36,781 nt of DNA from Candidatus Bathyarchaeota archaeon (GCA_026015225.1 JAOZGV010000127.1:1-36781), one strand, 5' to 3'; positions 6,161 to 35,338 are shown, counted from the stretch's first letter. The notes: generated by a model from the sequence alone, not told the origin. Program-made: numbers and translations.

Positions 6161-6189
6161 TTCGTTTATCGTTGGCAGATTTTTCCCCT

Positions 6190-7145: not shown

Positions 7146-7511
7146 CTTTTATCTAAACCGCCCTTACTGGATAGTTAAAACTAGTCATTTTTTATTCTTT
7201 CCTAAGAAAGTAGTATTTTACATAAATTTCCGGTAAAATCGATAATCGCAAAAAAATTTTTAGGGGCAGATTCGGCATTTATCCTCTTCCTTTAAAGAAA
7301 CTGGGTTGTTGTATATTTCTGAATTCGGTTATATTAGAATTTCTTTAAATATTTTTGTTATTCTAATACCCTTTTTTTAACATATTTAGATCGATATCTA
7401 TGTAGCCAATATTGATATGCCCCGGGATGTAATGATCGTCGTGATATGGGGTAAAATACTTAAGATTTAGGTCTTCTAAAGATTATAAAAAAGAGTTAAT
7501 CGGGACGTCAA

Positions 7512-9110: not shown

Positions 9111-9114
9111 TTTT

Positions 9115-10059: not shown

Positions 10060-10736
10060 TTTTGCGCCTCAATGAATTTTTCGCATTTTCTTAATCCATC
10101 TATACTATCTTTGCCAAATGCATCAGCACCAATTTTCATTGCAAAGTCTTCGGTCAATGCTTTCCCACCAACTATCACTTTTACCTTTTCTCTCAAATTT
10201 TCCTTTTCTAGCTGATCAATTACTTCACCCATATGAGAGATGGTTGATGTTAAAAGCGCAGACATACCTAGAATGTTAGGGTTTTCTTCCTTTACCTTTT
10301 CAATAAATAATTCTTTTCCTACATCCACTCCTAAATCTGTAACTTTGAAACCATTAGATTCGAGTGTTATTGTAAATATCATCTTACCTATATCGTGAAC
10401 GTCACCTTTTACAGTTCCAATCACTACTGAACCTCTAGTTTTGATAGTTTTTTTGAAATATTTCTTTAGTATTTCGACTGCCTTTTTCATATTTTTTCCT
10501 GATACGATTAAGTCTGATGTAAAGTATCTCTGGAATTTTTGATCTTCGAAGCCTTTACCTATCTCGTCTAATCCTAAAGACAGTTCGTTGAAAATATCGT
10601 AAGGATCCATGCCTTGATCCAATTTATTTTGGCAATATTCTTTTATTTTATCCCCTTTGAAATCAAGTAGTACTTCTATGAGTCTTCTTATTTCATTTTT
10701 TTTGGACATTCTTTTAAGCACCAGGAAATTCGACAA
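10056..10736 (-). CDS. Cobalamin-binding corrinoid protein (B12-binding cap plus Rossmann domain; MtaC/MtbC-like architecture)
   Basis: 226-aa ORF with GDVHDIGK (DxHxxG), SALLTST and VGGKAL, preceded by a helical cap region. The track start is TTG at 10736. An in-frame ATG at 10709 (MSKKNE...), with GGTG about 10 nt upstream, is an equally plausible start. Confidence 0.85.
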   Translation of the reverse strand: MSNFLVLKRMSKKNEIRRLIEVLLDFKGDKIKEYCQNKLDQGMDPYDIFNELSLGLDEIGKGFEDQKFQRYFTSDLIVSGKNMKKAVEILKKYFKKTIKTRGSVVIGTVKGDVHDIGKMIFTITLESNGFKVTDLGVDVGKELFIEKVKEENPNILGMSALLTSTISHMGEVIDQLEKENLREKVKVIVGGKALTEDFAMKIGADAFGKDSIDGLRKCEKFIEAQK

Positions 10737-21992: not shown

Positions 21993-22009
21993 CATTCTAT
22001 AAGGTTAGA

Positions 22010-22053
22010 GCGTGCTTTATTGATCGGGTTTTTAACCAGCACGCACTTTTTTT
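22010..22053 (+). terminator. Hairpin plus T7 tract downstream of the purH-like gene
   Basis: The stem is GCGTGCT (22010-22016) paired with AGCACGC (22038-22044), with a 21-nt loop. It is followed by ACTTTTTTT (T-run 22047-22053). The stem arms are copies of the GC-rich intergenic motif. Confidence 0.5.
22038..22046 (-). repeat. GC-rich intergenic motif GTGCGYGCT, exact copy
   Basis: The plus strand reads AGCACGCAC. It lies between the purH-like gene and trpB2. A near-copy, GAGCGTGCT, sits at 22008-22016 on the plus strand. Confidence 0.6.
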
Positions 22054-22173
22054 ATGTTTTTTTCAATTATTATAGGGAATTATATGAGTACTTAATGGTA
22101 CAAATAAGACTTAATAAGTTCTTAAAATAAGAAATGGTCTAATAAAATCCTAAAAGTTACGGAGAAGACCAGA

Positions 22174-23562
22174 TTGGTTGATAAAAAGAGAAAAATATTG
22201 TTGGATGAAGAAGATATACCCAAGCAATGGTACTGTATTCTCCCTGACCTGCCTAAACCGATGCCACCATTGATAGATCCAGCGACGAAAGAGCCTGGAC
22301 CAGGGATCGTCCCCCAAATATTTCCAAAGGAGATCCTCGCTCAAGAGATGAGTCAGGAAAGGTGGATAGACATTCCAGAAGAAGTGAGAGAAGTCTACCG
22401 TCTCTGGAGACCTACCCCCCTTATCAGAGCCTTTGGGCTGGAGAAAGCTTTGAAGACCCCCGCCAAGATTTATTACAAAAACGAAGGCGTCAGCCCTCCA
22501 GGAAGTCACAAACCCAATACTGCGGTTGCCCAAGCTTACTACAATATGAAGGAGGGAAAAGAACGTCTAGCCACGGAAACGGGAGCTGGCCAGTGGGGTT
22601 CAGCGTTATCCTTTGGTTGCATGACTTTTGATGTAGAATGTACCGTTTACATGGTTAGAGTTAGCTACGATCAGAAGCCCTACAGAAGGATTATGATGGA
22701 ACTCTGGAATGCCGAGGTGCATGCAAGCCCAAGTAATAAAACAGACGCAGGTAGAAAGATTCTAGAAGAAGATCCCAATAATTCTGGGAGCTTAGGAATC
22801 GCTATCAGCGAAGCTGTAGAAGATGCTCTAAATCATGAAGAAGCTAATTATTCTATAGGCAGCGTTTTCAATCATGTCCTCACGCATCAAACAGTGATTG
22901 GACAGGAGACCAAAAAACAGCTTGAATTGGTAGACGACTATCCCGACGTAATCATCGGGTGCATAGGTGGAGGCAGTAGCTTCTCAGGTCTCATGTGGCC
23001 ATTCTATTATGATAAAGTCTCAGGAAAAGCACCAAAGGACATAAAGTTTATAGCTACAGAGGCTACAGCTTGCCCCTCTATTACAAGAGGAGAATACGCT
23101 TACGATCATGGTGACACTGCGAGACTTACCCCTCTAGTAAAGATGCATACCTTAGGACATGATTTTATACCACCACCGATACATTCTGGAGGCCTGCGCT
23201 ACCACGGCATAGCCCCTACGCTAAGCGTCTTGAATCAAGCGAAGATCTTGGAGACACGAGCTTATAATCAGGTGGAAGTCTTCGACGCCGCAAGACTCTT
23301 CATCAAAAGCGAGGGTGAAATACCTGCTCCAGAACCAACTCATGCCATTAAAGGTGTTATTGATGAAGCATTGAAATGCAAGAAGACTGGAGAGGAGAAG
23401 ACATTGCTCTTCCTGCTTTGTGGTCATGGTCACTTTGATATGAAAGCTTATGACGACTATCTTCAAGGTAATCTGCAACCCTACGAGTACCCGAAGGAAG
23501 AAGTAGCGAAGGCTATGAAGAAACTAAAAGATCTATATCCTTGGTTGGGAACCGTGTCTTAA
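22174..23562 (+). CDS. trpB2: TrpB2-type tryptophan synthase beta-like PLP enzyme
   Basis: 462-aa ORF with a TTG start preceded by GGAGAAG. It has the long TrpB2-style N-terminus ([13 protein letters not shown]...), GSHKPN and GCIGGGSSF. It is markedly more GC-rich than its neighbours. Confidence 0.88.
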
Positions 23563-23574
23563 TTTTCCCTACCC

Positions 23575-23582
23575 TTTTTTTT
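23575..23582 (+). terminator. Oligo-T tract (archaeal-type terminator candidate) after trpB2
   Basis: A run of 8 T starts 13 nt after the trpB2 stop. Confidence 0.35.
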
Positions 23583-23631
23583 CAGTCCAAATATATCTTA
23601 AGATAATTAATATTAAAGAGGTGCAAGCTAG

Positions 23632-24270
23632 GATCAGATAGTCAATTCGACTAGACTGTTTCCAATACAATTTCTATAAGAACATGAAAAGATCAATCCC
23701 TCCAATTTCTATAAGCTAAGATCCAAACTAATTAGAGATGGATTTCAAAAAGACCCTATAATAATCGAAAATAAATACAATATTATTTTGGATGGTCACC
23801 ATAGAGTAAATATTCTGAAATCTTTAGGATGTTCACAAATTGCTGCATATTCAGTGGATTATCTAGATAATGAAGAAGTTCAAATTGAAACATGGTATCC
23901 AATAATCATACATTCTGTAATCGATCCACTTCGGTTATATAAGAAATATTTTTTTGATATCGATGAGAAAAAAAATAGCTATTCAAAGTTACTTTATAAA
24001 GAAAGAGTATTCAAATTGAATCTTACAAGAGAAAAAGCAATGCGGCTCATAAAAAGTCGGGCCAAAATTGCATATTTTTATTCAGAAGAATCAGCAAAGA
24101 ATATGGTCAAAAAAAGAAGAGCGATAGCAGCTCTCTCATTTGGTTCAATTTCAAAAGAAGAAGTCATAAACTATGCGCTTTTAGGAAATAAATTTCCTCC
24201 AAAAACGACAAGACATATAATACCAAATAGACCTAAAAATTGTTACGTGCCACTTGAAAAGTTGAAATAA
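23632..24270 (+). pseudogene. ParB/Srx-fold (DGHHR) protein, apparently disrupted by an in-frame TAA; the only intact ORF is 23788-24270 (TTG start)
   Basis: Frame-1 translation upstream of the track ORF reads ...TRLFPIQFL*EHEKINPSNFYKLRSKLIRDGFQKDPIIIENKYNIILDGHHRVNILK. This conserved-looking ParB-like N-terminal half (HE...DG.HR) continues upstream of the TTG. It is cut by TAA at 23677-23679. There is no ATG, GTG or TTG between that stop and 23788. Confidence 0.5.
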
Positions 24271-24367
24271 CTTAGTTCTATCACATAAAATTTAATTTAT
24301 ATCATGGTAATATTTTAAATAAAAAATAAGAAATAATTGAGAATCTAATTTTTTAGGTGATTTATAA

Positions 24368-24961
24368 TTGGCATGGGATGATTTTCCTGATTGGTTCAGA
24401 CGAAAGCGAAGATCCCCATTTTTTTCAGGAGGTTTTTTTGAAGATATCGATCAGATGATGGAAGATATGCTCAGAGAAATGGGGGAGTCGATTCCTAAAG
24501 AGCTTATAAGAGATGAAAAACTTCCCGATGGAAGTACAGTAAAAAGAATGGGTCCTTTCGTGTATGGTTATTCAATGACTATGGGACCTGATGGTAAACC
24601 AGTGATAAGGGAGTTTGGAAATATAAAGCAAACAAGGACTTCGGCCTTTGGGATGCCAAAACGCGGATTAGAGGTAAAGGCTGAACGCGAACCATTAGTT
24701 GATACATTCGATGAGAATGGCACTGTAAAAATTGTAGCTGAAGTCCCAGGTGTTGAAAAAAAAGATATTAACCTAGAATTGACTGAGAATTCTTTAATTA
24801 TCTCTGTAGACACTCAGAAGAGGAAATACTTCAAGGAAGTTGAATTGCCCACACAGATTGAGCCTGATAGCACAAAAGCACTTTATGTGAATGGTGTTCT
24901 AGAGGTAACTCTAGAAAAAAGAAGTAAAAAGGCAAGTAGCCACAAAATAGACGTCAAGTAA
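24368..24961 (+). CDS. Small heat-shock protein, Hsp20/alpha-crystallin family
   Basis: 197-aa ORF with a TTG start 7 nt after AGGTGA. The alpha-crystallin domain reads VDTFDENGTVKIVAEVPGVEKKDINLEL...NGVLEVTLEK. Confidence 0.88.
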   Translation: MAWDDFPDWFRRKRRSPFFSGGFFEDIDQMMEDMLREMGESIPKELIRDEKLPDGSTVKRMGPFVYGYSMTMGPDGKPVIREFGNIKQTRTSAFGMPKRGLEVKAEREPLVDTFDENGTVKIVAEVPGVEKKDINLELTENSLIISVDTQKRKYFKEVELPTQIEPDSTKALYVNGVLEVTLEKRSKKASSHKIDVK

Positions 24962-25097
24962 TATGCATAGTTATATAAATTGAACATAGAAACGCTCTAA
25001 AATTAGAATCGCATTTATCAAAAGTCTGATTGAGTTCTCTATTTATTGCAAAATTTTTCTTTTTTCATATCAGTATCAGTCAGGTTAATTGATAAGA

Positions 25098-25146
25098 GCA
25101 TCACACATTCGGAGTCATAGCAATGGGCTAATCTGAATGTGTGTGC
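25098..25146. other. Strong imperfect hairpin in the largest intergenic spacer (24962-25400)
   Basis: The arms are GCATCACACATTCGGA (25098-25113) and TCTGAATGTGTGTGC (25132-25146). They share a perfect 9-bp core, CACACATTC/GAATGTGTG, around an 18-nt loop. No ORF spans it. Confidence 0.4.
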
Positions 25147-25400
25147 AATTTAATGGATAGTTTCCTTACTAGCTCTTTTTAATACCGCTTTTTTTGTCTT
25201 TTAAACCGAAAAAATAGGTTTAAATCTGGCAACAGAGCGCTAGCTGCGGAGTATTTGTAGAACTATTAATATTCACAGAGTGAAAATCGATTAATATAAT
25301 AAAGATTTATAATAAGTAATTCCATTGTTTGATTTGCGCTTTAATATTTTTTCCTTTATTAGTACAAACTAGACATCAGAAATATTTTAAAGGAGTTGTG

Positions 25401-25718
25401 ATGACAATAGCCGAACCCTCTTGGGTTTCAACAATTGATGCAGATAAATTACTAGAAAACAAAAAAGCTGCCATATATCCTAAAGGATTACCTGTCCTTC
25501 TTATCAAGCAGGGGGGACGAATTCATGCTATTTCAAATAAATGCGCACATATGGCATGTCCATTGGCTGGAGGCGTATTAGAAGATTGTATAATAAGATG
25601 CCCGTGTCATAATTGGGGTTTCGATATTAAAACAGGCGAATTCTTAGACGCAAAAGAGATCAAAATACAAGTTTATCAGACTAAATTACTAGAAGGAAAA
25701 ATATATGTAAAAATTTAG
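25401..25718 (+). CDS. Small soluble Rieske [2Fe-2S] domain protein
   Basis: The motif is CAH-x16-CPCH (CAHMACPLAGGVLEDCIIRCPCH). I prefer the ATG at 25401, preceded by AGGAG at 25391-25395, over the track's TTG at 25329. Confidence 0.85.
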   Translation: MTIAEPSWVSTIDADKLLENKKAAIYPKGLPVLLIKQGGRIHAISNKCAHMACPLAGGVLEDCIIRCPCHNWGFDIKTGEFLDAKEIKIQVYQTKLLEGKIYVKI

Positions 25719-25729
25719 GAGGAAAAGTC

Positions 25730-25987
25730 TTGGAAAAAATATTTATGTATACTTTGAGCACTTGTCCTTGGTGCAGGAAGACGAAACAATTCTTCAAAGA
25801 GAAAAATATCGAATTTAATTTTGTCGATTACGATCTAGCTGGCGAGGAAGAACAAGACAAAATTCGTGATGAAATGAGTAAATATGGCAATGTAGCTTTT
25901 CCATTTGTAAAAATTGGCGAAGAAGTGGTTATAGGATATGATCCGGACAAGTATTCGAAGTTATGTGGGCTAACAGAAGGAAAATAA
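25730..25987 (+). CDS. Glutaredoxin-like / NrdH-like small redoxin (CPWC)
   Basis: 85-aa ORF with MYTLSTCPWCRKTKQFF and FPFVKIGEEVVIGYD, indicating a thioredoxin fold. The TTG at 25730 lies 7 nt after AGGAGG. An alternative ATG is at 25745. Confidence 0.85.
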   Translation: MEKIFMYTLSTCPWCRKTKQFFKEKNIEFNFVDYDLAGEEEQDKIRDEMSKYGNVAFPFVKIGEEVVIGYDPDKYSKLCGLTEGK

Positions 25988-25989
25988 GG

Positions 25990-26322
25990 ATGAATATAGA
26001 ATCCAGAAAAAAAGCTTTAAAATTTCTTTATCAAAGAGTTGTTGACCCCTTAGGGTATAAATTCAGTCCAGATAAAGACCTAGTTGATTTCTTATTGGAG
26101 CAAGAGGTAAAATTGAAACAAAAACATGGAATTCCTTTTTGCCCTTGTCAAGGACTTTCAAAAGATAGAGAAGAGAACATGAGAATTGTCTGTCCATGTA
26201 TACCTTTTCATAGAGAACATTTTGATGCGATGAAAAGATGTTGGTGTGGACTTTTTGTCCATAAGGATGTAACAAATTCCGATGAACTTAAACAGATCCC
26301 TGTTCATGAAATAAAAAAGTGA
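25990..26322 (+). CDS. Ferredoxin:thioredoxin reductase catalytic-subunit-like protein (FTRc/FDR-like)
   Basis: Three Cys pairs are present: FCPCQ, VCPCI and RCWCGLF. This is the CPC...CPC...C(H)C pattern of FTR catalytic chains. I prefer the ATG at 25990 (after AAGGA) over the track start at 25963, which would overlap the previous gene. Confidence 0.8.
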   Translation: MNIESRKKALKFLYQRVVDPLGYKFSPDKDLVDFLLEQEVKLKQKHGIPFCPCQGLSKDREENMRIVCPCIPFHREHFDAMKRCWCGLFVHKDVTNSDELKQIPVHEIKK

Positions 26323-26690
26323 ATAAGATGCAAGTTGAAGTTGGAAAAATAAACGAGTTGCCTCCTGGCGGTATGAAAGCGATCGAGGTAAGTGGTAAAG
26401 AGATCGTTCTTTGCAACTATGAGGGAAAAATATTTGCGATTGATAGGAGATGTGGACATATGAATGCGCCCTTAGACAAGGGTACATCAGAAGGATATAT
26501 AGTAACTTGTCCAATGCATAATGCTCAATTTGATTTGACTACAGGTGAGATTCTGAGTGATCCAATTCCTCGACCTCGCCCCTCAGATTTTATGCATTGG
26601 TTTGGAATGTTAATGTCTAATATTAAGACTCATAACATCAAGACTTATCCCGTTAAAATAGATGGTGAAACCATAAAGATAGAGATCTGA
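26319..26690 (+). CDS. Small soluble Rieske [2Fe-2S] domain protein (second copy)
   Basis: The motif is CGH-x16-CPMH (CGHMNAPLDKGTSEGYIVTCPMH). The GTG at 26319 overlaps the FTR-like stop. An alternative ATG is at 26328. Confidence 0.85.
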   Translation: MNKMQVEVGKINELPPGGMKAIEVSGKEIVLCNYEGKIFAIDRRCGHMNAPLDKGTSEGYIVTCPMHNAQFDLTTGEILSDPIPRPRPSDFMHWFGMLMSNIKTHNIKTYPVKIDGETIKIEI

Positions 26691-26740
26691 AAAAAATAAT
26701 TCTATTTGAAAACGAGCGTACACATCTTTAATAAATAAAA

Positions 26741-26748
26741 GCGCGCGC
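26741..26748. repeat. Degenerate relative of the GC-rich motif (GCGCGCGC)
   Basis: AAAAGCGCGCGCCTGAAA lies in the spacer between Rieske-2 and the MFS gene. GAGCGTACA at 26714-26722 is nearby. Confidence 0.35.
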
Positions 26749-26860
26749 CTGAAATAATTTTACAACATCATCTTAATTGTCTCTTAAATTCTGAATATTT
26801 ATGAAAATTTTACAAGTTTTATATTCTTATCCAGTCTATTAGAGCGATGTGTTGGACTAA

Positions 26861-28066
26861 TTGATCAGTAGATATCGATGGGTTATTCTATCCTTGGCAT
26901 TTTTAGCATTTGCAACCACCTATATGGCTAGAATGGCATATCCTCCCCTTATTCCAGAGATGAGTATTGAATTAAATCTGACTCATGCTGAAGCTGGAAT
27001 GCTTATGTCGGGTTTTTTTATGGGCTATTTGGCTATACAGTTGCCAATCGGATTCGTTTCGGATAAAGTTGGGGTTAAGCGAATTTTTACTATCTCCTTG
27101 GTCCTGACAGGGATCTTATGCATACTTACTGGCTTTGCCGGATCTTTTTCAGAGGTTCTTATCTATAGATTTTCAAAAGGTCTAGCCGCTGGGTGCATTT
27201 TTGCTCCAGGTTCAGCATTGATATTAAGATGGTTTCCTCCAAAGGATAGGGCCATATCAATAAGTTTCTTCCAAATTTCGGTTTCATTTGGAACTTTTAT
27301 TGCCCTTTCATCTTCTGCTGCCATATCTTCATTTTTTGGTGGTTGGAGTTGGTCTTTCTGGATATTAGGGATTCCATCCATAATTATTGCCATACCTTCA
27401 TTATTTCTTCTAAGAGAAAAACCTGATGAGACTTTTGAAGGCGAAGTGGTTGACGGGGGAAGAGAAGTTGGATCATATTATGGCTTTGTGCTGAGAGATC
27501 TACGCATGTGGCTAGTTTGTATAGCTACAGTAGGAGGTGGCGCTGCATTTATAGGGTCTCTTACTTGGATTCCAACATACCTTGTAAGGATAGTGAATTT
27601 ATCCGAAGTTTATGCAGGCTCAATATCCTCTTTACTGGCGCTTGCTGGAATTTTTGGAACGCCCATTGGCGGATTTATTGCCGATAGAATTCTCCATAAG
27701 AGAAGTCCCATAGTTTTTTTAGGAATATTTGGTTCAGGATTAGCTTGCATATTTTTTTCGATCGTTGTGCCATCTGATCTTTATTCAGCTATAGCTTTGT
27801 TTATTCCCATCCCATTCTTTTCTGCGGTGTGGTGGATTGGCCCATCGCTTTTATCAGAGTGGTTCCCCTTAAAAGTTCTAGGAACCGCTACAGGCATTCT
27901 AAACTTTATGACGATTTCTGGATGTGTATTAGGTCCATTTATCTTTGGTCTTATACTAGATCTAACTAATTCATTCTCTCATGGATGGTTTGCTTTAGGA
28001 GCGATTGCCTCTCTTTCTGCATTGTTAATGATACCAATAATGTTGCAGGATTCGAAGAATGTATGA
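26861..28066 (+). CDS. MFS transporter
   Basis: 401-aa ORF that is very hydrophobic, with about 12 predicted helices by eye. An MFS-like loop (SDKVGVKR) follows TM2. The substrate is unknown. Confidence 0.8.
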   Translation: MISRYRWVILSLAFLAFATTYMARMAYPPLIPEMSIELNLTHAEAGMLMSGFFMGYLAIQLPIGFVSDKVGVKRIFTISLVLTGILCILTGFAGSFSEVLIYRFSKGLAAGCIFAPGSALILRWFPPKDRAISISFFQISVSFGTFIALSSSAAISSFFGGWSWSFWILGIPSIIIAIPSLFLLREKPDETFEGEVVDGGREVGSYYGFVLRDLRMWLVCIATVGGGAAFIGSLTWIPTYLVRIVNLSEVYAGSISSLLALAGIFGTPIGGFIADRILHKRSPIVFLGIFGSGLACIFFSIVVPSDLYSAIALFIPIPFFSAVWWIGPSLLSEWFPLKVLGTATGILNFMTISGCVLGPFIFGLILDLTNSFSHGWFALGAIASLSALLMIPIMLQDSKNV

Positions 28067-28129
28067 TGCGAATTTATATTAATCCAAATTCTAAAAAGTT
28101 AATTAAATTGCGTATTTTCAATTAGATAA

Positions 28130-28324
28130 TTATTTCTTTGTCCGATCTATAATTTGAGCCATCAGAGCATTAGTTCTCACTGATTCTATTCCTTTCATGC
28201 AGGCACCTTTGCTTTTATATGCCTCCCCCACTGCAATAATTTCGTTATTTGGAGCCATCAATCTAAAGCGGAATTGTCCTCCAGCGCGCGCGCTAAAGCC
28301 TAATACAGAACTGAGCATCTTCAT
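28130..28324 (-). CDS. DUF1508 (YegP-like) single-domain protein
   Basis: 64-aa ORF. GGQFRFRLMAPNNEIIAVGEAYKSKGACMKGIESVRTNA matches the remembered YegP repeat pattern (yrFrLka.NgeiI..seaY.sk....gIesVk.na). Confidence 0.65.
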   Translation of the reverse strand: MKMLSSVLGFSARAGGQFRFRLMAPNNEIIAVGEAYKSKGACMKGIESVRTNALMAQIIDRTKK

Positions 28325-28652
28325 GGAAGTACGTCTGGTAATTCTTCTGACACCAATTACAACTTCTCTAAAGTTACTTTAAATAATAATCCCAGTCTCA
28401 ACAACTCTTTTCGTATCCTTTTCAATATCATCAAAAGCCTTAGCCAAAGGATCGACTACATCATAAAATTCAGAAGTGATCTTCTTTTTAACTGGCATTC
28501 AAAACTACCTAAGTATATATAGATATATCAGATTTTTTTCTACTTGCTTAAGAATTATCTAAATAGATGATGCTAATAATGAGTGTTTTGATTTAAGGAT
28601 GCATATTCAATAATTTTAAGGCTAACAAAAGAACAATATATTTAGTATTAAA

Positions 28653-30191
28653 GTGATCAGAATGATAAGAAAGATTTCAATTCTATTTATAATAATCCTA
28701 CTTTCAATAATTCCAATTTGCATTCAAGATACTATATCACTTGAAGCCCCACATATTGAGGGAACAAAAACTATTTCACCAACGCGTGTTCTTAAAGAAC
28801 AAAAAATAACTGTCACAATCAAACTTACTGGTGAAGGGGACATAACCTTAGCCCCTATCGATGTAGTTTTAATCCTTGATAAATCCGGTAGCATGCGCGG
28901 CGATAAGATTATAGATGCAAAAGAAGCAGCAAAGTCATTCTTAGATTATACCTTTGATGTTGATAAGGTCAGTCTAGTAACATTTAGCAACGATCCAAAA
29001 ATAAATTTTGACTTACAATTCATGAATTCTGCAAATGAGGATCTTTTAAAAGTTGAAATAGATGATATAATAGCATCGGGATCTACGAATATTTATGATG
29101 CTATCGTAACAGCTAATGAAATTCTGACTGATTCTCCAAGAGCGGGTGTACCTTTAGTAGAAATTCTTCTAACAGACGGAGCACACAATTATCCATCTTT
29201 TCTTTCAGACAGTGATTTCGAATCTTTAGCCGATCAAACCAAAAACAAAGGCATCATCATTTATACTATAGGGTTGGGAGAAGATGTAAACGAAAAAAGA
29301 CTTGAGTTGATCGCAAACACCACAGGAGGTAAATACTACTTTGCTCCAAACTCAGAAGATCTTGGAGATATTTTTGAAGATATTGCGAGCTTTTTAAATA
29401 TTGCCGGCACAAATATCGTTGTTTCTGAGACCATACCTTCTTATCTATCTTATAACGGAGACGCTTCAAAAAATCCTGATGAAACAATCACAAATAATGG
29501 GATAACTCTCAAATGGAATATTGGTACGCTTTCAATAGGAAGAGAGTGGAATGTTACTTATACAGCCCAAACAAAAGAAGCGGTAGAATCTAGCGATCTT
29601 GTTTCACAAACACGTATAGATTATATAAAAACAGATTCAGCCTCAACCACCATAAACCTAGAACCAGGCTTAATTTATAATGATATTGCACTGACATATC
29701 TAGCAGCTGAGCATGAAAGAGTGACTCAAGGGGACATAAATGAAATTACAACCACAGTAGAGAGTCAAGGATCTGTCCAAAGAACCTTTGATCTAGAAAT
29801 TAGGTACGATAGTACCTTAATCAATAGTCAATCCTTAACATTGAATCCCGGTCAGACAAAAAATGTAACTTACTCATGGAATACCTCAAGTGCAGAAGTA
29901 GGGAGATACACCATCACTGCAACCATTGATCCTGATCAACAAATTTGGGAGCAAGACAGAACAGATAATACAGCTACTACTGAAGTTGAAATATCATCTG
30001 CAAGTCAATATCCATTCATTCCAATATTTATTGCAGTCTTAATATTGCTAACTGTACCCATAGTTGCGGCGGCTATGTATTCAAGACCAAGAGGAGGCCC
30101 TCCCAGATGCGAGGAATGTAAAGAATTCTTGTTCTATGATAAACGAACAAGGAGATGGTACTGCCAGCGATGCAGACGCTATGTTTTATAA
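28653..30191 (+). CDS. Membrane-anchored vWA (MIDAS) plus CARDB-like domain protein with a C-terminal TM helix and cytoplasmic Zn-ribbon
   Basis: 512-aa ORF. It has an N-terminal signal/anchor (ISILFIIILLSIIPI), the MIDAS motif VLILDKSGSM...GSTNIYDAI...LTDG, and a CARDB-like block (NDIALTY...NPGQTKNVTYSWN...GRYTITATIDPD...E.DRTDN). A TM helix (PIFIAVLILLTVPIVAAAMY) precedes CEEC...CQRC. Confidence 0.8.
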   Translation: MIRMIRKISILFIIILLSIIPICIQDTISLEAPHIEGTKTISPTRVLKEQKITVTIKLTGEGDITLAPIDVVLILDKSGSMRGDKIIDAKEAAKSFLDYTFDVDKVSLVTFSNDPKINFDLQFMNSANEDLLKVEIDDIIASGSTNIYDAIVTANEILTDSPRAGVPLVEILLTDGAHNYPSFLSDSDFESLADQTKNKGIIIYTIGLGEDVNEKRLELIANTTGGKYYFAPNSEDLGDIFEDIASFLNIAGTNIVVSETIPSYLSYNGDASKNPDETITNNGITLKWNIGTLSIGREWNVTYTAQTKEAVESSDLVSQTRIDYIKTDSASTTINLEPGLIYNDIALTYLAAEHERVTQGDINEITTTVESQGSVQRTFDLEIRYDSTLINSQSLTLNPGQTKNVTYSWNTSSAEVGRYTITATIDPDQQIWEQDRTDNTATTEVEISSASQYPFIPIFIAVLILLTVPIVAAAMYSRPRGGPPRCEECKEFLFYDKRTRRWYCQRCRRYVL

Positions 30192-30268
30192 TACTAGAAC
30201 CTATCAATATTTTTTTTATAAGTATCTAACTTCATTGGACAATGAGTGGGGAAGTTTTTTAATAAAGT

Positions 30269-30277
30269 GTGCGTGCT
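30269..30277 (+). repeat. GC-rich intergenic motif GTGCGYGCT, exact copy
   Basis: GTGCGTGCT lies in the convergent spacer between the vWA gene and the radical SAM gene. Confidence 0.6.
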
Positions 30278-30379
30278 TGTATTTGTTTACGCCGTCATTT
30301 TCATTCTCGAATTGCCTCGTATTTTAAATATCTGAATGCCAACTATTACAAATTTTTATCTTCATTCTCCAGAGCTTTT

Positions 30380-31303
30380 TTACCATAATCGGAGAGAGTG
30401 TCTAAAAGTTTCTCCTCTTTCTAAACCAAATTTTTTTGCTAATTCAACAACAGCTTTATATTCCTTTAAATTTGGTCTTCTTCTCAACTTTTCATATTCA
30501 TGTGCTTTGTAAGCAGGCCTATATTGATCCATTATGTTGGTGTAGGTATTTTTTGATATCTTTTCTGCAATGAATTTCAAGATTTGTTCACTTCCAGCTT
30601 CATTGTTTGGCAAAACTAGATGTCGAATAAGGAGTCCTCTTTTTGCAATTCCATCTTCGATTATCAAGTCACCTACTTGTCTATGCATCTCAATAACTGC
30701 TTCCTCGCATCGTTCAGCATAATCAGGAGCATCTGAATATTTTTTTGCAGAATCTGAGGAACCATATTTCATATCGGGCATATATATATCAACGATACCT
30801 TCTAGAAACTTAATAATCTCAGCACTTTCATATCCACCACAGTTCCAAACTATTGGTAAATGTAAGCCTTTTTTTATTGCAAAATCAATCGCATTAACAA
30901 GTTGAGGTGTGAAGTGTGTTGGAGTTACAAGATTAATATTATGACAACCTTGTTCTTGAAGATAGATCATGTAATCAGCCGCTTTCTCTTCACCAACGGC
31001 GTTACCATAACCAAGATGACTAATATCATAATTCTGACAATAAATGCATAGCAGGTTACAATTTGTTAGAAATATTGTTCCGGAACCGCTAGAACCGACA
31101 AGAGGTTCTTCCTCACCGAAATGGGCATTAAAACTCGAGATCATCAAATCCTTGCCGGATTTGCAATAGCCCTTTTCCCCCTTTAATCGATTCACTCTAC
31201 ACTTTCTGGGGCATATCTCACAACTTTCGAGTATGCGATATAGTCTATCAATCTTCTCTTTTAATTTACCTTTCTTACGCGAGTTTAGATAAACTGGTTC
31301 CAT
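30380..31303 (-). CDS. Radical SAM protein, PflX/COG1313-like
   Basis: 307-aa ORF with N-terminal CEICPRKCRVNRLKGEKGYC and the radical SAM CxxxCxxC motif (CNLLCIYC). Confidence 0.82.
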   Translation of the reverse strand: MEPVYLNSRKKGKLKEKIDRLYRILESCEICPRKCRVNRLKGEKGYCKSGKDLMISSFNAHFGEEEPLVGSSGSGTIFLTNCNLLCIYCQNYDISHLGYGNAVGEEKAADYMIYLQEQGCHNINLVTPTHFTPQLVNAIDFAIKKGLHLPIVWNCGGYESAEIIKFLEGIVDIYMPDMKYGSSDSAKKYSDAPDYAERCEEAVIEMHRQVGDLIIEDGIAKRGLLIRHLVLPNNEAGSEQILKFIAEKISKNTYTNIMDQYRPAYKAHEYEKLRRRPNLKEYKAVVELAKKFGLERGETFRHSLRLW

Positions 31304-31361
31304 CTGGCATCAATAAAATTATTTTCATCCTATATAATTTACAAATGAAAAAGGAATATTT

Positions 31362-31370
31362 GTGCGTGCT
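31362..31370 (+). repeat. GC-rich intergenic motif GTGCGYGCT, exact copy
   Basis: GTGCGTGCT lies 9 nt beyond the stop of ORF 31379-32347 and about 60 nt upstream of the radical SAM start. Confidence 0.6.
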
Positions 31371-31378
31371 CAAAATAA

Positions 31379-32347
31379 TCATTTAGACACTTGACTATCT
31401 CTAAGGATGGTGCTAGCCACTTCAAGATCTTCTTCAAGTTCTTCTATAGATCCAGTTCCGATCATGCACATATCAACTCCTATTTCATTATAAACATACT
31501 CTAAAGCTTCCTTTGGTTTTATTCTTCCCCCAGCAAATGGTTTAACGCCAACTATTATTTTTTCTTCTTTTCTAGCATTTTTTATACACTTTTCAACTTC
31601 TTTTTTTGTTGGAAACATCATTATTCCAGATTTATTGACAGGGGCAACATACCCATCATGCTTCTTCACTCGCTCCTCACTTAATAATTGAAAAGTAATT
31701 CCTAAATGATGGGAGCCTAGCAGAACCCTGTATCCAAACTCATGAGTTCTATCCAGAAGTTCTTCAAGTAGGTCCATTCTACACAATGCTAGAAAATCGG
31801 ATTCTGATCCAGGCTCAATCCAAGCAATCTTATGAGTTGAGAACCTAATCATCTCATCCTCCCATTTACTCCAATCAATCTTCAGTCCTCTATCCAGCTC
31901 TTTTAAGTCATAAGGTTTGGCAGTGCTAAAATTTTCTCTCCAATCATCTCGACAATTCAATATTGGATCCTCATAATAATTCGCTCTGATGTTTTTTCCA
32001 AAATATTTTAACTCATAGGCCAGATGGGTAGCCCATCTTCTGTAATCGGTTATTCTTTCTCCACTTAGTGTCATCGGAATACCTGCACATGCCATTAATG
32101 GGATCCTTATATCTTGTTCATCCTCTAATTCCTTTAACGATTGTAGGTGGATGGGAGAAAGTTCATTAAAATCTTGAGAGGAACAAGCAAAATATCTAAT
32201 ACCATTCTTAAGTGCAATTTTCATTATTTTCTTGATTTCCTCTTTGTCTGAGAATTTTTCTTTGTATTCCCTATCTTTATCTTTGCCCTGATAACTTATA
32301 CCGAGTAAAGGCAGATTGCCAAAAATTACTTTTTCTAGTTTAAACAT
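31379..32347 (-). CDS. Hypothetical protein (faint aldo/keto-reductase-like TIM-barrel flavour; family not recognised)
   Basis: 322-aa ORF, co-directional with the radical SAM gene and 75 nt upstream of it. Coding is supported by length and composition. Only a weak resemblance to AKR N- and C-terminal blocks was seen. Confidence 0.6.
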   Translation of the reverse strand: MFKLEKVIFGNLPLLGISYQGKDKDREYKEKFSDKEEIKKIMKIALKNGIRYFACSSQDFNELSPIHLQSLKELEDEQDIRIPLMACAGIPMTLSGERITDYRRWATHLAYELKYFGKNIRANYYEDPILNCRDDWRENFSTAKPYDLKELDRGLKIDWSKWEDEMIRFSTHKIAWIEPGSESDFLALCRMDLLEELLDRTHEFGYRVLLGSHHLGITFQLLSEERVKKHDGYVAPVNKSGIMMFPTKKEVEKCIKNARKEEKIIVGVKPFAGGRIKPKEALEYVYNEIGVDMCMIGTGSIEELEEDLEVASTILRDSQVSK

Positions 32348-32387
32348 ATGCTTAGAATAGTTTCGCCAGTAATTAAAAGACTTGTTG

Positions 32388-32396
32388 AGCGCGCAC
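32388..32396 (-). repeat. GC-rich intergenic motif GTGCGYGCT, exact copy
   Basis: The plus strand reads AGCGCGCAC. It lies about 40 nt upstream of the start of ORF 31379-32347, in the spacer after tdh. Confidence 0.6.
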
Positions 32397-32477
32397 TAAA
32401 AATAATTAAAAGGTCAATTCAGATGAGGTTTATTTTCAGGAAATGCACCTAAACTTGAATGTACGATTTTGCAACTC

Positions 32478-33515
32478 CTAAGGAGTTAATATGACTTTTG
32501 ATGCTTCGCCTTTCATGATTAACTGAAAACCTTCCTCTGCCTTTTCTAATGGGAAACTATGGGTAATCACAGAAGTTAGGTCAATTTTCTTATCAGAAAC
32601 TAGTCTTTGAACTCTATACCATGTATCGAACATATATCTTCCAAACACACCTAGAAGGTCTATCTCCTTGTAAACAATAAATGAGGTGGTATCCAAGGTT
32701 GGATTTTCAGGACAAACTCCAAAGAGAACTACTTTACCGCATTTGGCAACGATTTCCAATGATTGCTTAATAGTATTAATAGAACCGGCCGCTTCAAAGA
32801 CAATATCGGGTCCTCGTTTCCCTAATATTGATTTTACTCTTTCTTCTACATCTTCTTCAGCTGCATTAATAACGTCTCTAGCAGCACCAATCTTCTTTGC
32901 GATCTCAATTCTATACGGCTTTATGTCCGTTGCCACTACTTTTGATCCCAGCGCATTCATGATTTGCTGGATAAATATGCCAATTGGACCGCATCCCAAT
33001 ACAACAGCAGAATCTCCCGGTTCAGGATATGTTCTTTGAACTGCATGCATGGCCACTCCACAAGGTTCGTAAAGTACTCCCTCCTCATGGGATGTACCTT
33101 CGGGTAATTTATAGGCGATAATTTCGGGTATTACTGCATATTCTGCGAAAGACCCTTCATAAGTGTGGACGCCAAACACCTTCAGATTTTCACATATATG
33201 CATTCTTCCAGTTTTACAAAAATAGCACTGCTCACAAGGAATGTGAGTTTCACCCGCAATAATATCTCCAGGTTTAAGCCTCTTTACCTTCTCCCCGATT
33301 TCAACAACATCTCCACAAAATTCATGCCCTATGATAGTAGGGAGCGCCCAATTTCCCTTGATAGCCTGCTCATCCCATTTATATTGATGAATGTCAGAAC
33401 CGCAATATGCTGCTGCCTTGATGTTAACTAAGACATCTCTAGACCCTACTTTTGGATCCTCAACATCAGTAATTTCAATTCCTGATTTTGGTACTCTCTT
33501 TACAACAGCTTTCAT
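32478..33515 (-). CDS. tdh: Zn-dependent medium-chain dehydrogenase, L-threonine 3-dehydrogenase-like
   Basis: 345-aa ORF with catalytic Zn ligands (CGSDIH, GHEFCG), a structural Zn loop (CEQCYFCKTGRMHIC) and a Tdh-like YKWDEQA. The Rossmann motif is GCGPIG. Confidence 0.8.
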   Translation of the reverse strand: MKAVVKRVPKSGIEITDVEDPKVGSRDVLVNIKAAAYCGSDIHQYKWDEQAIKGNWALPTIIGHEFCGDVVEIGEKVKRLKPGDIIAGETHIPCEQCYFCKTGRMHICENLKVFGVHTYEGSFAEYAVIPEIIAYKLPEGTSHEEGVLYEPCGVAMHAVQRTYPEPGDSAVVLGCGPIGIFIQQIMNALGSKVVATDIKPYRIEIAKKIGAARDVINAAEEDVEERVKSILGKRGPDIVFEAAGSINTIKQSLEIVAKCGKVVLFGVCPENPTLDTTSFIVYKEIDLLGVFGRYMFDTWYRVQRLVSDKKIDLTSVITHSFPLEKAEEGFQLIMKGEASKVILTP

Positions 33516-33601
33516 TTTCCTAATCCACTATCTTGTTCATTATCATTGATATTTAAAGATAAATGCTAATACTATTAGAATGTTCAAATTTACTATAAAA
33601 G

Positions 33602-33613
33602 TGAGCGCGCTCA
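33602..33613. repeat. Perfect 12-nt palindrome TGAGCGCGCTCA (motif relative)
   Basis: It lies in the divergent spacer between tdh (start 33515) and the hisI-like gene. Confidence 0.55.
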
Positions 33614-33764
33614 TGTCACTACTAAGAATTGATGCGATGAGTGGGATTCGGAGTCACGGAATAATGCCGGCTGGATCTATTAGAAATTGAATAGTTATTC
33701 AATTTTGTTTGCTCAAGAAAAGAATAATAGAACGCACACTAAATTTTTCTATGATGATAAAAAT

Positions 33765-34094
33765 ATGAGTGAACTCGAGCCAAAAAGCGTGAAATATATA
33801 TTTAATGATAAGGGAGAAGATTTAATTCCTGCTATTATTCAAGATTTTGATTCTAAAAAGGTCTTATGCGTATATTATATGAATGAAGAAGCTCTAATGA
33901 GAAGTCTGAGATCAAGAAAGATATGGCGATATAGTAGAAGGCAAGAAAGAATTATGATGAAAGGAGCCAGATCTGGCCACCCAATGGAAATAATAGAAAT
34001 ATTGCCAGACTGCACAAGCCAATCACTTCTAGTCAAAGTTAAAACAGAAGGCCCAACTTGCCTTACTGGCAAAGAAAGCTGTTTTGATGTATAA
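33765..34094 (+). CDS. hisI: Phosphoribosyl-AMP cyclohydrolase (HisI)-fold protein with degenerate metal motifs
   Basis: The sequence aligns end to end with remembered HisI: GEDLIPAIIQD...VLCVYYMNEEAL...KGARSGH...DCTSQS...CLTG..SCF. I prefer the ATG at 33765 (MSELEP...) over the TTG at 33687. Confidence 0.65.
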   Translation: MSELEPKSVKYIFNDKGEDLIPAIIQDFDSKKVLCVYYMNEEALMRSLRSRKIWRYSRRQERIMMKGARSGHPMEIIEILPDCTSQSLLVKVKTEGPTCLTGKESCFDV

Positions 34095-34131
34095 TTTTCT
34101 TCTAACGAGGTTTAGAAGAACTTCGGAGTCA

Positions 34132-34181
34132 AGCGCGTGCTAATGATTAGTGTGCACTAAAATAATATCGATAGCGCACGC
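34132..34181. repeat. Inverted pair of motif relatives (AGCGCGTGCT ... AGCGCACGC)
   Basis: The copies are at 34132-34141 and 34173-34181 and can pair at 8 of 9 positions. GTGCAC at 34152-34157 lies in the loop, and a T8 run follows. The pair is in the convergent spacer between the hisI-like gene and the amidinotransferase gene. Confidence 0.55.
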
Positions 34182-34221
34182 ATATTTTTTTTAAAAATAA
34201 AAAGATACGATTTACACCAGT

Positions 34222-35265
34222 TCATCCACTAAGCCTTCTCACCAACGGATGAGTTGAGCACCTAATAGCGCCGCCGTCTTCAGTATGGTTACCAAAGAAA
34301 ATGCGGTACACGTTAATGCCTTCCGCTTCTAGTTCATTCTGGACGTGTTTGCCATCGTATTGTTCGTTGTATGGAAGGATATAGTGATTGGGATCAATGG
34401 GCAATCCATTAGTTGCCAGCCGCTGGGCATCATTTTCAGAGACTTCAATCAACTTCCAATCATTAAAGTATGATGGTATTCCGTTTACAAAAGCATCTGG
34501 ACAAATGATAGCCAGATTAGGACGCACTATCGAAAGAACCACGTCCAAATGCAAGAACTTCTCTCTAATTAGCACCCGCTCTACATCATATCCCTGCGGT
34601 TCTAAGATGGATTTAAGCCAAGTACAACCCAACTCACTTGAGCCCACAGTGGTGTTAACGGAGGTACCCACTAAAATCTTCTTTCCAAGTATATGTATGT
34701 CTCCACCTTCCAGTAGTGGAAATGTATTTTTGTTATAACTACCGCTTTCGAACATCTTGCTATAGTCCAATTTGGGCATGGCAAACCACTTAGCGTTTGA
34801 ACCCAATACTCGATCCATAAACAGTTGTCGATATGCTAGCAGATCGGCTATACGTGTAAGAGTAGCGAGATTCAGTTCGATCACATTGTCTCCGATAACT
34901 GCTATCGGGTCGCGAGAGTATTGGAGTACGACTCCGCAGTATCGGATGGCATCTTCCCCTAGGTTGATAACTAGCTGTTCACGTGTGAGAACCTCGGGTC
35001 GCCACACTCTGATGCTATGTTTTTGAAAAATGGCGATAAGCTCTTGATTTTCCTTCTCCATGGCATCGTATTTTCCAATCTCCATGGAGGATTTGCCTGA
35101 TCTTTCGATCATTTTTTCACGTTCACTCTCTGGCAGTATTTTAAGTGCCTCCTGTGCCCAATCAGCCACTTCCAAGTCGGGATAAATCATTAACGGCACA
35201 CCGACGATAACCTCTTTTAGATCGCCATATTCATAATCTACATATATTTCAGATTTCATAATCAT
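34222..35265 (-). CDS. Amidinotransferase / guanidino-group-modifying enzyme superfamily protein
   Basis: It has a C-terminal catalytic-Cys context (GGAIRCSTHPL), FLHLDVV and LLEGGD. I prefer the ATG at 35265 (MIMKSE...) over the track's TTG at 35283. It is GC-rich relative to its neighbours. Confidence 0.75.
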   Translation of the reverse strand: MIMKSEIYVDYEYGDLKEVIVGVPLMIYPDLEVADWAQEALKILPESEREKMIERSGKSSMEIGKYDAMEKENQELIAIFQKHSIRVWRPEVLTREQLVINLGEDAIRYCGVVLQYSRDPIAVIGDNVIELNLATLTRIADLLAYRQLFMDRVLGSNAKWFAMPKLDYSKMFESGSYNKNTFPLLEGGDIHILGKKILVGTSVNTTVGSSELGCTWLKSILEPQGYDVERVLIREKFLHLDVVLSIVRPNLAIICPDAFVNGIPSYFNDWKLIEVSENDAQRLATNGLPIDPNHYILPYNEQYDGKHVQNELEAEGINVYRIFFGNHTEDGGAIRCSTHPLVRRLSG

Positions 35266-35318
35266 GGAGCCCTTCTTTCTCAATTGAATAATAGTAATGA
35301 CATATTAATGCGCGTTTA

Positions 35319-35338
35319 TAGCGCGCACGATTGAAAAA
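35319..35338. repeat. Motif copy (plus strand AGCGCGCAC, 35330-35338) forming a 6-bp GC hairpin with TGCGCG (35319-35324)
   Basis: The hairpin is TGCGCG-tttatag-CGCGCA. It lies in the divergent spacer between the amidinotransferase gene and the CofE-like gene. Confidence 0.6.

Follow-up and report, generated by a model that had tools for sequence, protein, structure and literature searches.

Short palindromic sequences that recur between genes have been described in several settings. Bacterial REP/BIME elements are extragenic, palindromic and lineage-specific; they occur in hundreds of copies, preferentially after stop codons and between convergent genes, and REPs are imperfect hairpins of 20-40 nt mobilised by RAYT transposases. 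In integrons, the single-gene units of a variable array have palindromic attC sites (57-141 bp, with a defined structure and a requirement for the IntI integrase) shortly after their stop codons. The GC clusters of yeast mitochondria are organellar elements of tens of base pairs, grouped into classes by sequence, with defined target sites, and the cyanobacterial palindrome HIP1 is abundant inside genes. GC clusters are G+C-rich palindromic insertions dispersed in very A+T-rich intergenic DNA; they vary between strains and are considered mobile (PMC4478555). HIP1, GCGATCGC, is a lineage-specific octamer, 15- to 300-fold over-represented, whose function has long been debated and for which a link to recombination is suspected (PMC5861425, PMC4390886); it has been linked to orphan methyltransferases (PMC4390886). 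Finally, end joining can leave short untemplated or locally templated filler at deletion joints, and in archaea microhomology-mediated end joining by the replicative primase PriSL(X) has been reported (PMC12019639; PMC3333859). In the account of Saccharolobus islandicus, PriSL is described as a terminal transferase that promotes annealing of strands sharing microhomology (PMC12019639).

The tracts analysed here, in a 36,781-nt stretch of Candidatus Bathyarchaeota DNA (hereafter the window) and across the 1.55-Mb, 35% G+C genome of this uncultured Bathyarchaeia archaeon, recall each of these kinds and differ from all of them. Each is a purely alternating GC stretch of 8-10 bp and lies in an archaeal chromosome, whereas GC clusters are several-fold longer. 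Unlike HIP1, they lie almost wholly in spacers, change rapidly and are found in genomes lacking a detectable C5-methylase: PF00145 was missing from G000 and, among the 10 tract-rich family genomes searched, from 8, being clear in G002 only, with a marginal fragment in G011. A HIP1-like palindrome linked to a C5-methylase was rejected for this reason. The REP-like element proposed in the original prediction holds by analogy only (extragenic, palindromic, lineage-specific), since there is no hairpin unit of 20-40 nt; the shared part is 8-12 bp, without conservation beyond 2-5 nt on either side of the core, and most copies cannot fold alone. Palindromes just past the stops of single-gene units, one of which is present or absent between strains, resemble integron cassettes. 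However, the 8-12-bp site is not an attC with R and L boxes, neither the window nor contig C179 showed an integrase, the genes concerned face both ways and half of the indels have no tract. Known filler DNA has no fixed recurring word, whereas here many joints share the palindrome A(GC)4-5T.

The recurrent unit and its decay

Five exact copies of GTGCGYGCT are present in the window, at 22038-22046(-), 30269-30277(+), 31362-31370(+), 32388-32396(-) and 35320-35328(-). All five had been recognised in the original prediction, with the last one displaced by 10 nt (35330-35338). Shuffled sequences give 0.06 copies and reached at least five in 0 of 100 cases. Every copy lies between ORFs, as first read. 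Relatives were correctly placed at 22008 (GAGCGTGCT), 26741 (GCGCGCGC), 33602 (TGAGCGCGCTCA), 34132 (AGCGCGTGCT) and 34173 (AGCGCACGC), and the possible one near 33731 is AACGCACAC, at about 33731; a TGCGCG assigned to 35319 is in fact at about 35307-35312, and 35319 is the first position of TAGCGCGCAC. The GCGCGC core is found at six places (1.2 expected), of which 11432 is the sole one within an intact gene. It corresponds to one of three coding hits given earlier (11433); another, 28293, belongs to a gene-remnant joint at 28284-28293, and no GCGCGC was found at the third, 13005. GYGYGYGY matches 16 times against 1.6 expected, each time right of 22 kb.

Genome-wide, 20 of the 24 GTGCGYGCT occurrences are intergenic, and intergenic DNA makes up 13% of the genome. 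A lack of intergenic enrichment, or a motif restricted to the window, had been named as contrary outcomes; instead the enrichment is strong and the motif occurs elsewhere in the genome. The 9-mer is nevertheless not the motif itself. The words with the highest intergenic enrichment are alternating GC tracts: GCGCGC has 375 intergenic and 97 coding occurrences, a 26-fold higher per-base density between genes, and for GCGCGCTA the ratio is 48-fold. Pure GC-alternation runs of 6 to 12 nt number 44, 29, 64, 17, 35, 7 and 3, a bimodal distribution with peaks at 8 and 10 nt, unlike AT, AC, GT, AG and CT repeats, whose run lengths fall monotonically. Nearly all start with G and end with C (62/64 8-mers and 33/35 10-mers, 95/99 together). 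The flanks are symmetric, with A at -1 in 83%, T at +1 in 70%, and TA on either side. The real unit is the palindrome (T)A-(GC)4-5-T(A) with the core GCGCGCGC, and the window's 9-mers are one- or two-transition derivatives of it. The size peaks and the G-first, C-last phase rule out a neutral dinucleotide microsatellite, although slippage itself does occur.

Variants at internal positions of AGCGCGCGCT comprise 32 transitions and 4 transversions. In tract columns aligned to relatives (n=222), 20 transitions, 8 transversions and 17 gap columns were counted; the tracts change faster than their flanks, and gain or loss of GC units by slippage is seen. GTGCGTGC and GTGCGCGC appear to be products of tract decay by transitions. 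In the window, the five 9-mer copies correspond to tracts at 22039-22046, 30267-30276, 31361-31369, 32389-32396 and 35321-35328. Comparison with the close-relative contig L058 illustrates such changes in the window. The perfect (GC)4 at 26741-26748, in the spacer after a Rieske/glutaredoxin operon, is (GC)5 in L058, a one-unit slippage. In the convergent spacer at 30267-30276, GTGTGCGTGC corresponds to a perfect GCGCGCGCGC, with three C-to-T differences in 10 nt between flanks that are about 95% identical. At 31361-31369, 9 nt past the stop of the 31379-32347 gene and about 59 nt ahead of the start at 31303, TGTGCGTGC faces TGTGCGTGCGTA; at 32389-32396, 41 nt upstream of the start at 32347, GCGCGCAC faces a perfect GCGCGCGC. 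The palindrome GAGCGCGCTC (33603-33612, divergent spacer), with its short (GC)3 core, is altered with an indel in L058.

Tracts at DNA joints

The close relatives available for alignment form a small sample of about 85 kb on five contigs, at 88-97% identity. Independent length differences of 14 nt or more number 14, and 7-8 of them have a tract within 6 nt of a joint (null probability per event at most 0.14; P = 1.3e-3). Six are tract-free, two of them beside a tRNA gene, so tracts are not the sole DNA-joining route here.

Two of the tract-bearing events are deletions inside genes. At 28284-28293, the window carries a perfect A-(GC)5-TA at the joint of a 603-nt deletion in a DUF1508 gene, whose N-terminal remnant carries a TAA stop. 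The window reads CCAGCG|CGCGCGCTA|AAGCC where L058 reads CCAGCG|..603 nt..|AAGCC, within an intact 320-aa ORF that has no tract at this position. On contig C75, exactly GCGCGCGC stands in place of about 1640 nt of a Pyr_redox_2/rhodanese gene. In both cases the tract is present at the joint and absent from the unrearranged allele, as expected of end-joining filler. Since neither end point bears a tract in the intact relative, these tracts must have been made at the joint. The filler of the 603-nt deletion includes TA, which a pure GC tail leaves unexplained.

A gain or loss of DNA between tracts is also observed. A 1.16-kb segment (34174-35329) that carries an amidinotransferase-fold gene (34222-35283, minus strand, weak ADI/DDAH hits) is missing in L058 and L065-L068, and has a tract at each end: GCGCACGC at 34174-34181 on the left, and GCGCGCAC at 35321-35328 on the right, the latter able to form a 7-bp hairpin with the TGCGCG just upstream. 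The neighbouring tract GCGCGTGC (34133-34140) is itself missing from L058 and from four further contigs of its population, as a 7-8-nt tract indel, and pure tract indels of 6-8 nt with nothing else changed are seen between close relatives. Where dispersed copies share homology, it ended at a tract in 71 instances and continued across one in 16, as compared with 119 and 90 for control anchors (Fisher P = 5.6e-5), and mosaic spacers of the forms X-tract-Y, X-tract-Z and V-tract-Y occur in C179, C24 and C27.

Being unusually frequent where DNA was deleted, inserted or swapped, the palindrome resembles a joining scar, not a control signal. The best explanation, with in our judgement about an even chance of being right, is that tracts are scars written or copied into DNA joints and later decaying. 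Of the options first raised, a scar marking cassette boundaries is the one favoured, because tracts mark about half of the indel joints, homology tends to stop there and tracts cluster in the non-syntenic right half of the window. On the other hand, most tracts in aligned spacers stay in place at 88-97% identity; a functional site would behave likewise, which counts against scars. Nor was any enrichment seen near contig ends.

Competing explanations and placement among genes

Tracts could instead cause the rearrangements, as fragile or recombinogenic sites that may adopt Z-DNA, slipped or cruciform forms and break, and that, as near-identical palindromes, offer 8-10 bp of microhomology usable in either orientation. 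Deletion, inversion or exchange of segments between tracts would then turn these into passive cassette boundaries. The tract-bounded 1.16-kb segment, the mosaic spacers, the accumulation of homology ends at tract edges, and the slippage and faster change within tracts would all fit. So would clustering in variable regions such as the right half of the window: between 26.7 and 35.5 kb, 9 of the 10 spacers of at least 75 nt hold a tract, as compared with 25% across the genome and with no such spacer in the conserved left half, and neighbouring spacers both bear tracts 81 times (50.1 +/- 5.5 expected). However, both gene-internal deletions lack a tract at either end point in the intact relative, and fragility leaves the origin of the tracts, their G-first phase, their 8 and 10 bp sizes and their TA flanks unaccounted for. 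Most variants are transitions, which keep the purine-pyrimidine alternation of a Z-DNA-forming element, but mutational bias would fit as well, and AG..CT at the flanks interrupts the alternation instead of extending it. Tract density is lowest in divergent spacers, the very places in which negative supercoiling should favour Z-DNA. We consider this causal role unlikely.

We also doubt strongly that the tracts are gene-boundary signals, that is, bidirectional palindromic DNA or RNA elements that help to delimit transcription units, by ending or insulating them; they might act as a GC block behind a U-rich stretch, as the site of a roadblock protein or, where two copies pair, as a terminator stem. 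Such signals would explain why density peaks in convergent spacers (2.7 per kb), is mildly raised 10-30 nt past stop codons (3.2 versus about 2 per kb) and is depleted in the last 40-60 nt ahead of start codons. They would also fit the T-rich 5' flank on both strands, the largely retained positions in relatives, and two paired copies in the window that form hairpins followed by a T run. These are 22010-22053, where the decayed tract GCACGCAC (22039-22046) forms a 7-bp stem with GCGTGC at 22010-22017 across a large loop, followed by T7 (MFE -13.1 kcal/mol, z -1.9), and 34133-34193, where 34133-34140 pairs with 34174-34181, followed by T8. Yet tracts are present in only about 25% of the spacers that reach 30 nt, density is nearly flat along spacers outside the promoter-proximal gap, about 85% of tracts have no partner and solitary tracts do not fold, and the flanks have no asymmetry relative to transcription. 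The core is variable in length and changes faster than its flanks, GCGCGCGC has 44 copies inside ORFs or gene wrecks (about 1 expected), and sister genera have none.

More specific signals were rejected. With symmetric flanks, few partners and a hairpin plus T run in only 2 of 9 window spacers, the tracts are not intrinsic or archaeal oligo-T terminators; a terminator scan gave 13 hits against 9.7 expected, no excess. A core promoter element linked to BRE/TATA is at odds with the broad, peakless distribution of distances to start codons and with the abundance of tracts in promoter-less convergent spacers. The binding site for a global factor, as first suggested, fits poorly with a core of 8 or 10 bp, fast transitions, copies inside gene wrecks and absence from sister genera.

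An ultra-short selfish insertion, akin to the GC clusters of yeast mitochondria, that spreads in trans by an insertion mechanism of its own into TA-containing A+T-rich DNA, with rearrangements as side effects, would account for the tract-only insertions of 6-8 nt, TA on both sides, discrete sizes, confinement to harmless places and a patchy spread suggestive of a transferable agent, but it is improbable given a unit of 8-10 bp, far smaller than any known transposable unit, flanks that are a palindromic extension (TTA...TAA) instead of a clear direct duplication, no transposase or integrase near tract-rich stretches (contig C179), and no longer parent element with GC termini, the dispersed repeats beside tracts being ordinary gene flanks.

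A putative joining system and its lineages

Among 201 genomes, those from five genera in the archaeon's family, and from a single further family in its class, hold 5-39 copies of TAGCGCGCGCTA each, as against 0-4 in the others; the reversed control has 0-3. The distribution is patchy, as sister genera of tract-bearing genera are tract-free. We infer that a lineage-specific agent lies behind the tracts. PriSL is universal in archaea, whereas the tract trait is confined to a few genera, and among the genes for C5-methylase, PolX, Ku, reverse transcriptase and PrimPol, none tracks tract presence across genomes.

If the tracts are joining scars, a broken DNA under repair, or a segment being lost, gained or moved, would have its ends joined through a short self-complementary GC stretch. 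Each 3' end, usually terminating in A, would receive or copy a G-first alternating GC tail. Two such tails could then anneal, and fill-in and ligation would yield an even-length tract starting with G and ending with C. The reported transferase and annealing activities of PriSL are the chemistry that this tail-and-anneal model needs. As a variant, an end may prime by microhomology on one of the roughly 300 existing tracts and copy it. Once inserted, the tract would be apparently neutral, surviving only where harmless, in gene wrecks and in those parts of spacers that are neither promoter nor 5'UTR, and would later change by gain or loss of GC and by C>T/G>A transitions.

A more specific proposal, which we regard as speculative and rather unlikely, is that a few Bathyarchaeia lineages carry a transferable, putative end-healing and joining system that writes (T)A(GC)nT(A) on broken or incoming ends. 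If so, any two ends bearing this fixed self-complementary word would become cohesive, and the system would be the equivalent, in a prokaryote, of de novo telomere addition, with joining as its use. Single genes would turn into exchangeable cassettes, and the occurrence of tracts in two separate families with tract-free sister genera would mark the spread and loss of the system.

A palindromic GC tract in the intergenic spacers

Five exact copies of GTGCGYGCT are found in the window, against 0.06 expected from dinucleotide shuffles. Four of them are at 22038-22046 (-), 30269-30277 (+), 31362-31370 (+) and 32388-32396 (-), as the original prediction had placed them; the fifth is at 35320-35328, not 35330-35338. 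The related motifs listed with them are also present in the window, some at slightly different coordinates, and all copies and relatives do lie between ORFs. The genome-wide count that had been called for gave 24 copies of the 9-mer, 20 of which fall in the intergenic 13% of the genome, a fraction defined by crude ORF-based gene calls on the assembly (1.55 Mb, 190 contigs, 35% G+C).

In an unbiased comparison of intergenic and coding k-mers, alternating GC words rank top. GCGCGC occurs 375 times in intergenic and 97 times in coding sequence, a 26-fold enrichment per base, and GCGCGCTA and AGCGCGCG are enriched 48-fold and 33-fold, respectively. The tracts listed genome-wide share the consensus WWA-(GC)4-5-TWW, and nothing is conserved further out. 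The real unit is this palindrome rather than GTGCGYGCT, and two of the sequences first noticed, GTGCGTGC and GTGCGCGC, are transition variants of it. Internal single-base variants of AGCGCGCGCT comprise 32 transitions versus 4 transversions.

Runs of pure GC alternation in spacers have a bimodal length distribution, with 44, 29, 64, 17, 35, 7 and 3 runs at lengths 6-12; AT, AC, GT, AG and CT runs decay monotonically with length. Among the pure GC runs, 62 of 64 8-mers and 33 of 35 10-mers start with G and end with C. The GC tract is a discrete element and not a plain microsatellite. Overall, alternating GC runs are more than 100-fold enriched here, an unusual excess since GC6, GC8 and RY12 patterns are generally suppressed across the prokaryotes surveyed (PMC4060949). 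The tracts seem to come in a second type, made of longer, GT-rich alternating runs. A repeated module of ~70-130 nt (..CATGAGATGAG..CGTTATT) lies directly next to mixed (GT)n(GC)n tracts 3' of paralogous ~280-aa genes on three other contigs of the assembly (C97 1890-2210; C105 14503-14780; C179 12547-12858 and 10220).

Tracts at the joints of rearranged DNA

Among the three interpretations initially offered (binding site of a global factor, REP-like element, recombination or insertion scar), the scar is the best supported. The proposed check of orthologous spacers was not feasible with other genera: the right half of the window has no synteny with them, and the surroundings of the window's ADH gene, whose protein found no match in an exact-protein look-up, are non-syntenic there. 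The check succeeded with L058, a metagenome contig of a close relative (same record as GenBank LFWY01000023), which is collinear with the window at 22-36.8 kb with 92-94% identity and carries tracts at the same places. The places are kept, yet the tracts are hot spots of change. At 30267-30276 the window has GTGTGCGTGC and L058 GCGCGCGCGC, and at 32389-32396 the window has GCGCGCAC and L058 GCGCGCGC. The tract at 26741 is (GC)4 in the window and (GC)5 in L058, the one at 33603 is altered in L058 and accompanied by an indel, and the one at 34133-34140 is missing in L058. The tracts could be fragile or microhomology sites that cause rearrangements, a reading that we regard as unlikely.

Tracts are involved in both large indels between the window and L058. 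At 28284-28293, the window carries CGCGCGCTA between CCAGCG and AAGCC, where L058 has 603 nt that belong to an intact ORF of 320 aa with a DUF1508 domain. Because this ORF is intact in L058 and the N-terminal remnant of the gene in the window has a stop, the window represents the derived state, and the perfect A(GC)5TA was made at the deletion joint. In the segment 34174-35329 (1.16 kb), a tract is found at either end and the cargo is an amidinotransferase-fold gene; a few tens of tract-free nucleotides stand in its place in L058.

The truncated DUF1508 gene (28130-28498 (-); L058 11338-12300) retains the first 69 and the last 51 codons of the 320-aa protein, in which DUF1508 is C-terminal, and the deletion is in frame (603 - 9 = 594 nt). 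A 64-aa ORF from 28324 is predicted to be still able to express the DUF1508 domain alone; in other genera this domain is a stand-alone protein of 63-87 aa. Further differences are observed at the left of the collinear region. A stand-alone TrpB2-like PALP gene (22174-23562, and 22984-23655) has ~68% DNA identity to its L058 counterpart, with flanks at 92-94%, and its 3' side (~670 nt) cannot be aligned to L058. The alignment suggests that a divergent allele has replaced the gene; near 23656, at the right-hand boundary, there is no tract. The gene at 23632-24270 (L058 16160-16792) has an open frame of 160 aa in the window and of 210 aa in L058, suggesting that a nonsense change arose recently in the window copy; no Pfam family matched the L058 protein.

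Five further contigs of relatives, retrieved via cluster members and exact-protein look-ups, are 88-97% identical to four other contigs of the assembly. With L058, they provide 14 independent differences in length (14 nt or more), and a tract lies within 6 nt of the joint in 7-8 of these 14. With 3.6% of intergenic bases that near a tract, an event has a probability of 0.14 or less of showing one by chance; for at least 7 in 14 the probability is 1.3e-3. A second clean case is on contig C75, where ~1640 nt of a Pyr_redox_2/rhodanese gene are swapped for exactly GCGCGCGC, flanked by native A and T. The 16 nt beside this filler were considered as a foreign insert and proved to be diverged native sequence. 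Indels consisting of a tract alone (6-8 nt) were also seen, as was an insertion of 15 nt bearing a second tract. Six of the 14 indels are tract-free, two of them beside a tRNA gene. At one tRNA gene (..GCGGCCGTGGTCTAGTCTGG.. / ..TCCCGGTGGCCGCACCA), C75 ~17.7-20.3 kb and the relative contig L075 14.9-19.8 kb differ by a 922-nt indel and a replacement of 2.5 versus 3.8 kb. No GC tracts are found at these joints, and the locus resembles a typical integration hot spot at a tRNA gene. Contig ends served as a proxy for strain-variable joints; tracts are not enriched near them, although uncalled end fragments inflate the null used here.

Where dispersed copies within the genome are compared by BLAST, their homology ends at tracts in 71 cases and crosses them in 16, compared with 119 and 90 at random intergenic anchors (P = 5.6e-5). 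Shared modules recur in spacers of contigs C179, C24 and C27, in the arrangements X-tract-Y, X-tract-Z and V-tract-Y. The tract-rich C179 holds ordinary genes, one of them Rad50-like: 4167-10105 comprises four large ORFs, the last of which, 8084-10105, encodes a Rad50/SbcC-like ATPase according to a Pfam check of that ORF only. The following 380-nt spacer (10106-10485) contains three RY/GC tracts and modules in common with the C24 and C27 spacers.

We consider it about an even chance that the tracts are scars that are written into DNA joints, or copied there, and drift afterwards. There are caveats: the sample is small, six indels lack a tract, many tracts persist in place, and no enzyme was found. 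Because the effects are moderate in size (about 3-fold for the ends of homology, and half of the indels), the bolder reading of a dedicated DNA-joining system is held to be improbable. Two G-first self-complementary tails could anneal head to head, which would account for the even length and the G-first/C-last phase. The TA within the filler of the 603-nt deletion suggests either the making of a (T)A-GC... unit or the copying of a tract already present. Among known chemistries, the closest is the microhomology-mediated end joining with terminal transfer described for the archaeal primase PriSL in PMC12019639; PriSL is universal and does not leave a fixed word.

Position of the tracts in spacers and along the genome

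Convergent spacers hold the most tracts (2.7 per kb of spacer), followed by tandem (1.7) and divergent ones (1.5), and tract density rises mildly 10-30 nt after stops. The tracts might thus act as a gene-end signal, a possibility that we find more doubtful than that of fragile sites: along spacers, their density is near-flat (~2-3 per kb), and their flanks are symmetric and independent of the direction of neighbouring genes. The association with T runs is weak, T5+ runs being only mildly enriched 5-40 nt after stops. A promoter element is ruled out by position relative to starts, the last 40-60 nt before start codons being almost empty of tracts. Promoter and terminator scans found no excess of such sites, and the window gave no match to Rfam.

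A strong complementary partner within 64 nt is found for ~15% of tracts, versus 2% with shuffled flanks; at this frequency, a two-tract hairpin is not the general form. In the window, three paired sites fold, followed in two by T7 or T8, and four solitary sites do not. Genome-wide, starts after long spacers are preceded by a purine/G-rich SD-like block at -14 to -8 before ATG (G up to 0.35 at -11), and leaders therefore differ in length. From this block, most such mRNAs seem to be leadered rather than leaderless. Overall, the tract pattern fits something tolerated wherever harmless, and fits a positioned signal less well.

Tract-bearing spacers are clustered, with 81 adjacent pairs versus 50.1 +/- 5.5 expected. 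Of the 10 larger spacers at 26.7-35.5 kb of the window, 9 have a tract; none is found in the conserved CODH/ACS half.

Lineage distribution, candidate agents and significance

Five genera of the window's family (g1, g2, g3, g6 and g7) have 16-119 copies of AGCGCGCGCT per genome. Genera g4, g5 and g8 and the order's other nine families have 0-5, apart from a single genome with 10; the reversed sequence, used as a control, occurs 0-5 times. A survey of the class (201 genomes) with the 12-mer TAGCGCGCGCTA found 5-39 copies only in those five genera and in a second, separate family, which likewise includes tract-free genera. Tract-rich genomes span 35 to 51% G+C, and base composition is therefore not the cause. 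Two of them, from different families, are nearly closed: G107 (one contig, 2.0 Mb; 39 copies of TAGCGCGCGCTA) and G011 (five contigs, 2.7 Mb; 25 copies). Among tract-rich genomes, G011 alone has a Ku gene.

Such a patchy distribution could reflect a selfish mini-insertion, like the GC clusters of yeast mitochondria (PMC4478555), which we hold to be improbable. No parent transposon with GC termini or MITE family was found, repeats abutting tracts being flanks of paralogous genes, and tract-rich stretches showed no transposase or integrase nearby. In presence/absence comparisons across 32-41 genomes, C5-methylase (PF00145), PolX palm (PF14792), Ku (PF02735), RVT_1 (PF00078) and Prim-Pol (PF09250) did not correlate with the trait. 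Filler DNA, GC clusters, HIP1 and REP are the closest known kinds, and the tract family is a member of none; the literature searched contained no description of tracts of this kind in Bathyarchaeia.

Returning to tracts as scars, the questions touched are how archaea rejoin broken DNA without Ku and how their flexible set of genes comes together. A practical use of the tracts in these MAGs is to point out gene wrecks and genes of recent acquisition. A repair or insertion process with a fixed signature would explain the enrichment of alternating GC runs, otherwise suppressed in prokaryotes (PMC4060949), and would point to an enzyme activity, either alternating-GC end tailing or tract copying. 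It would also provide a sequence tag with which past rearrangements could be dated and mapped in uncultured archaea.
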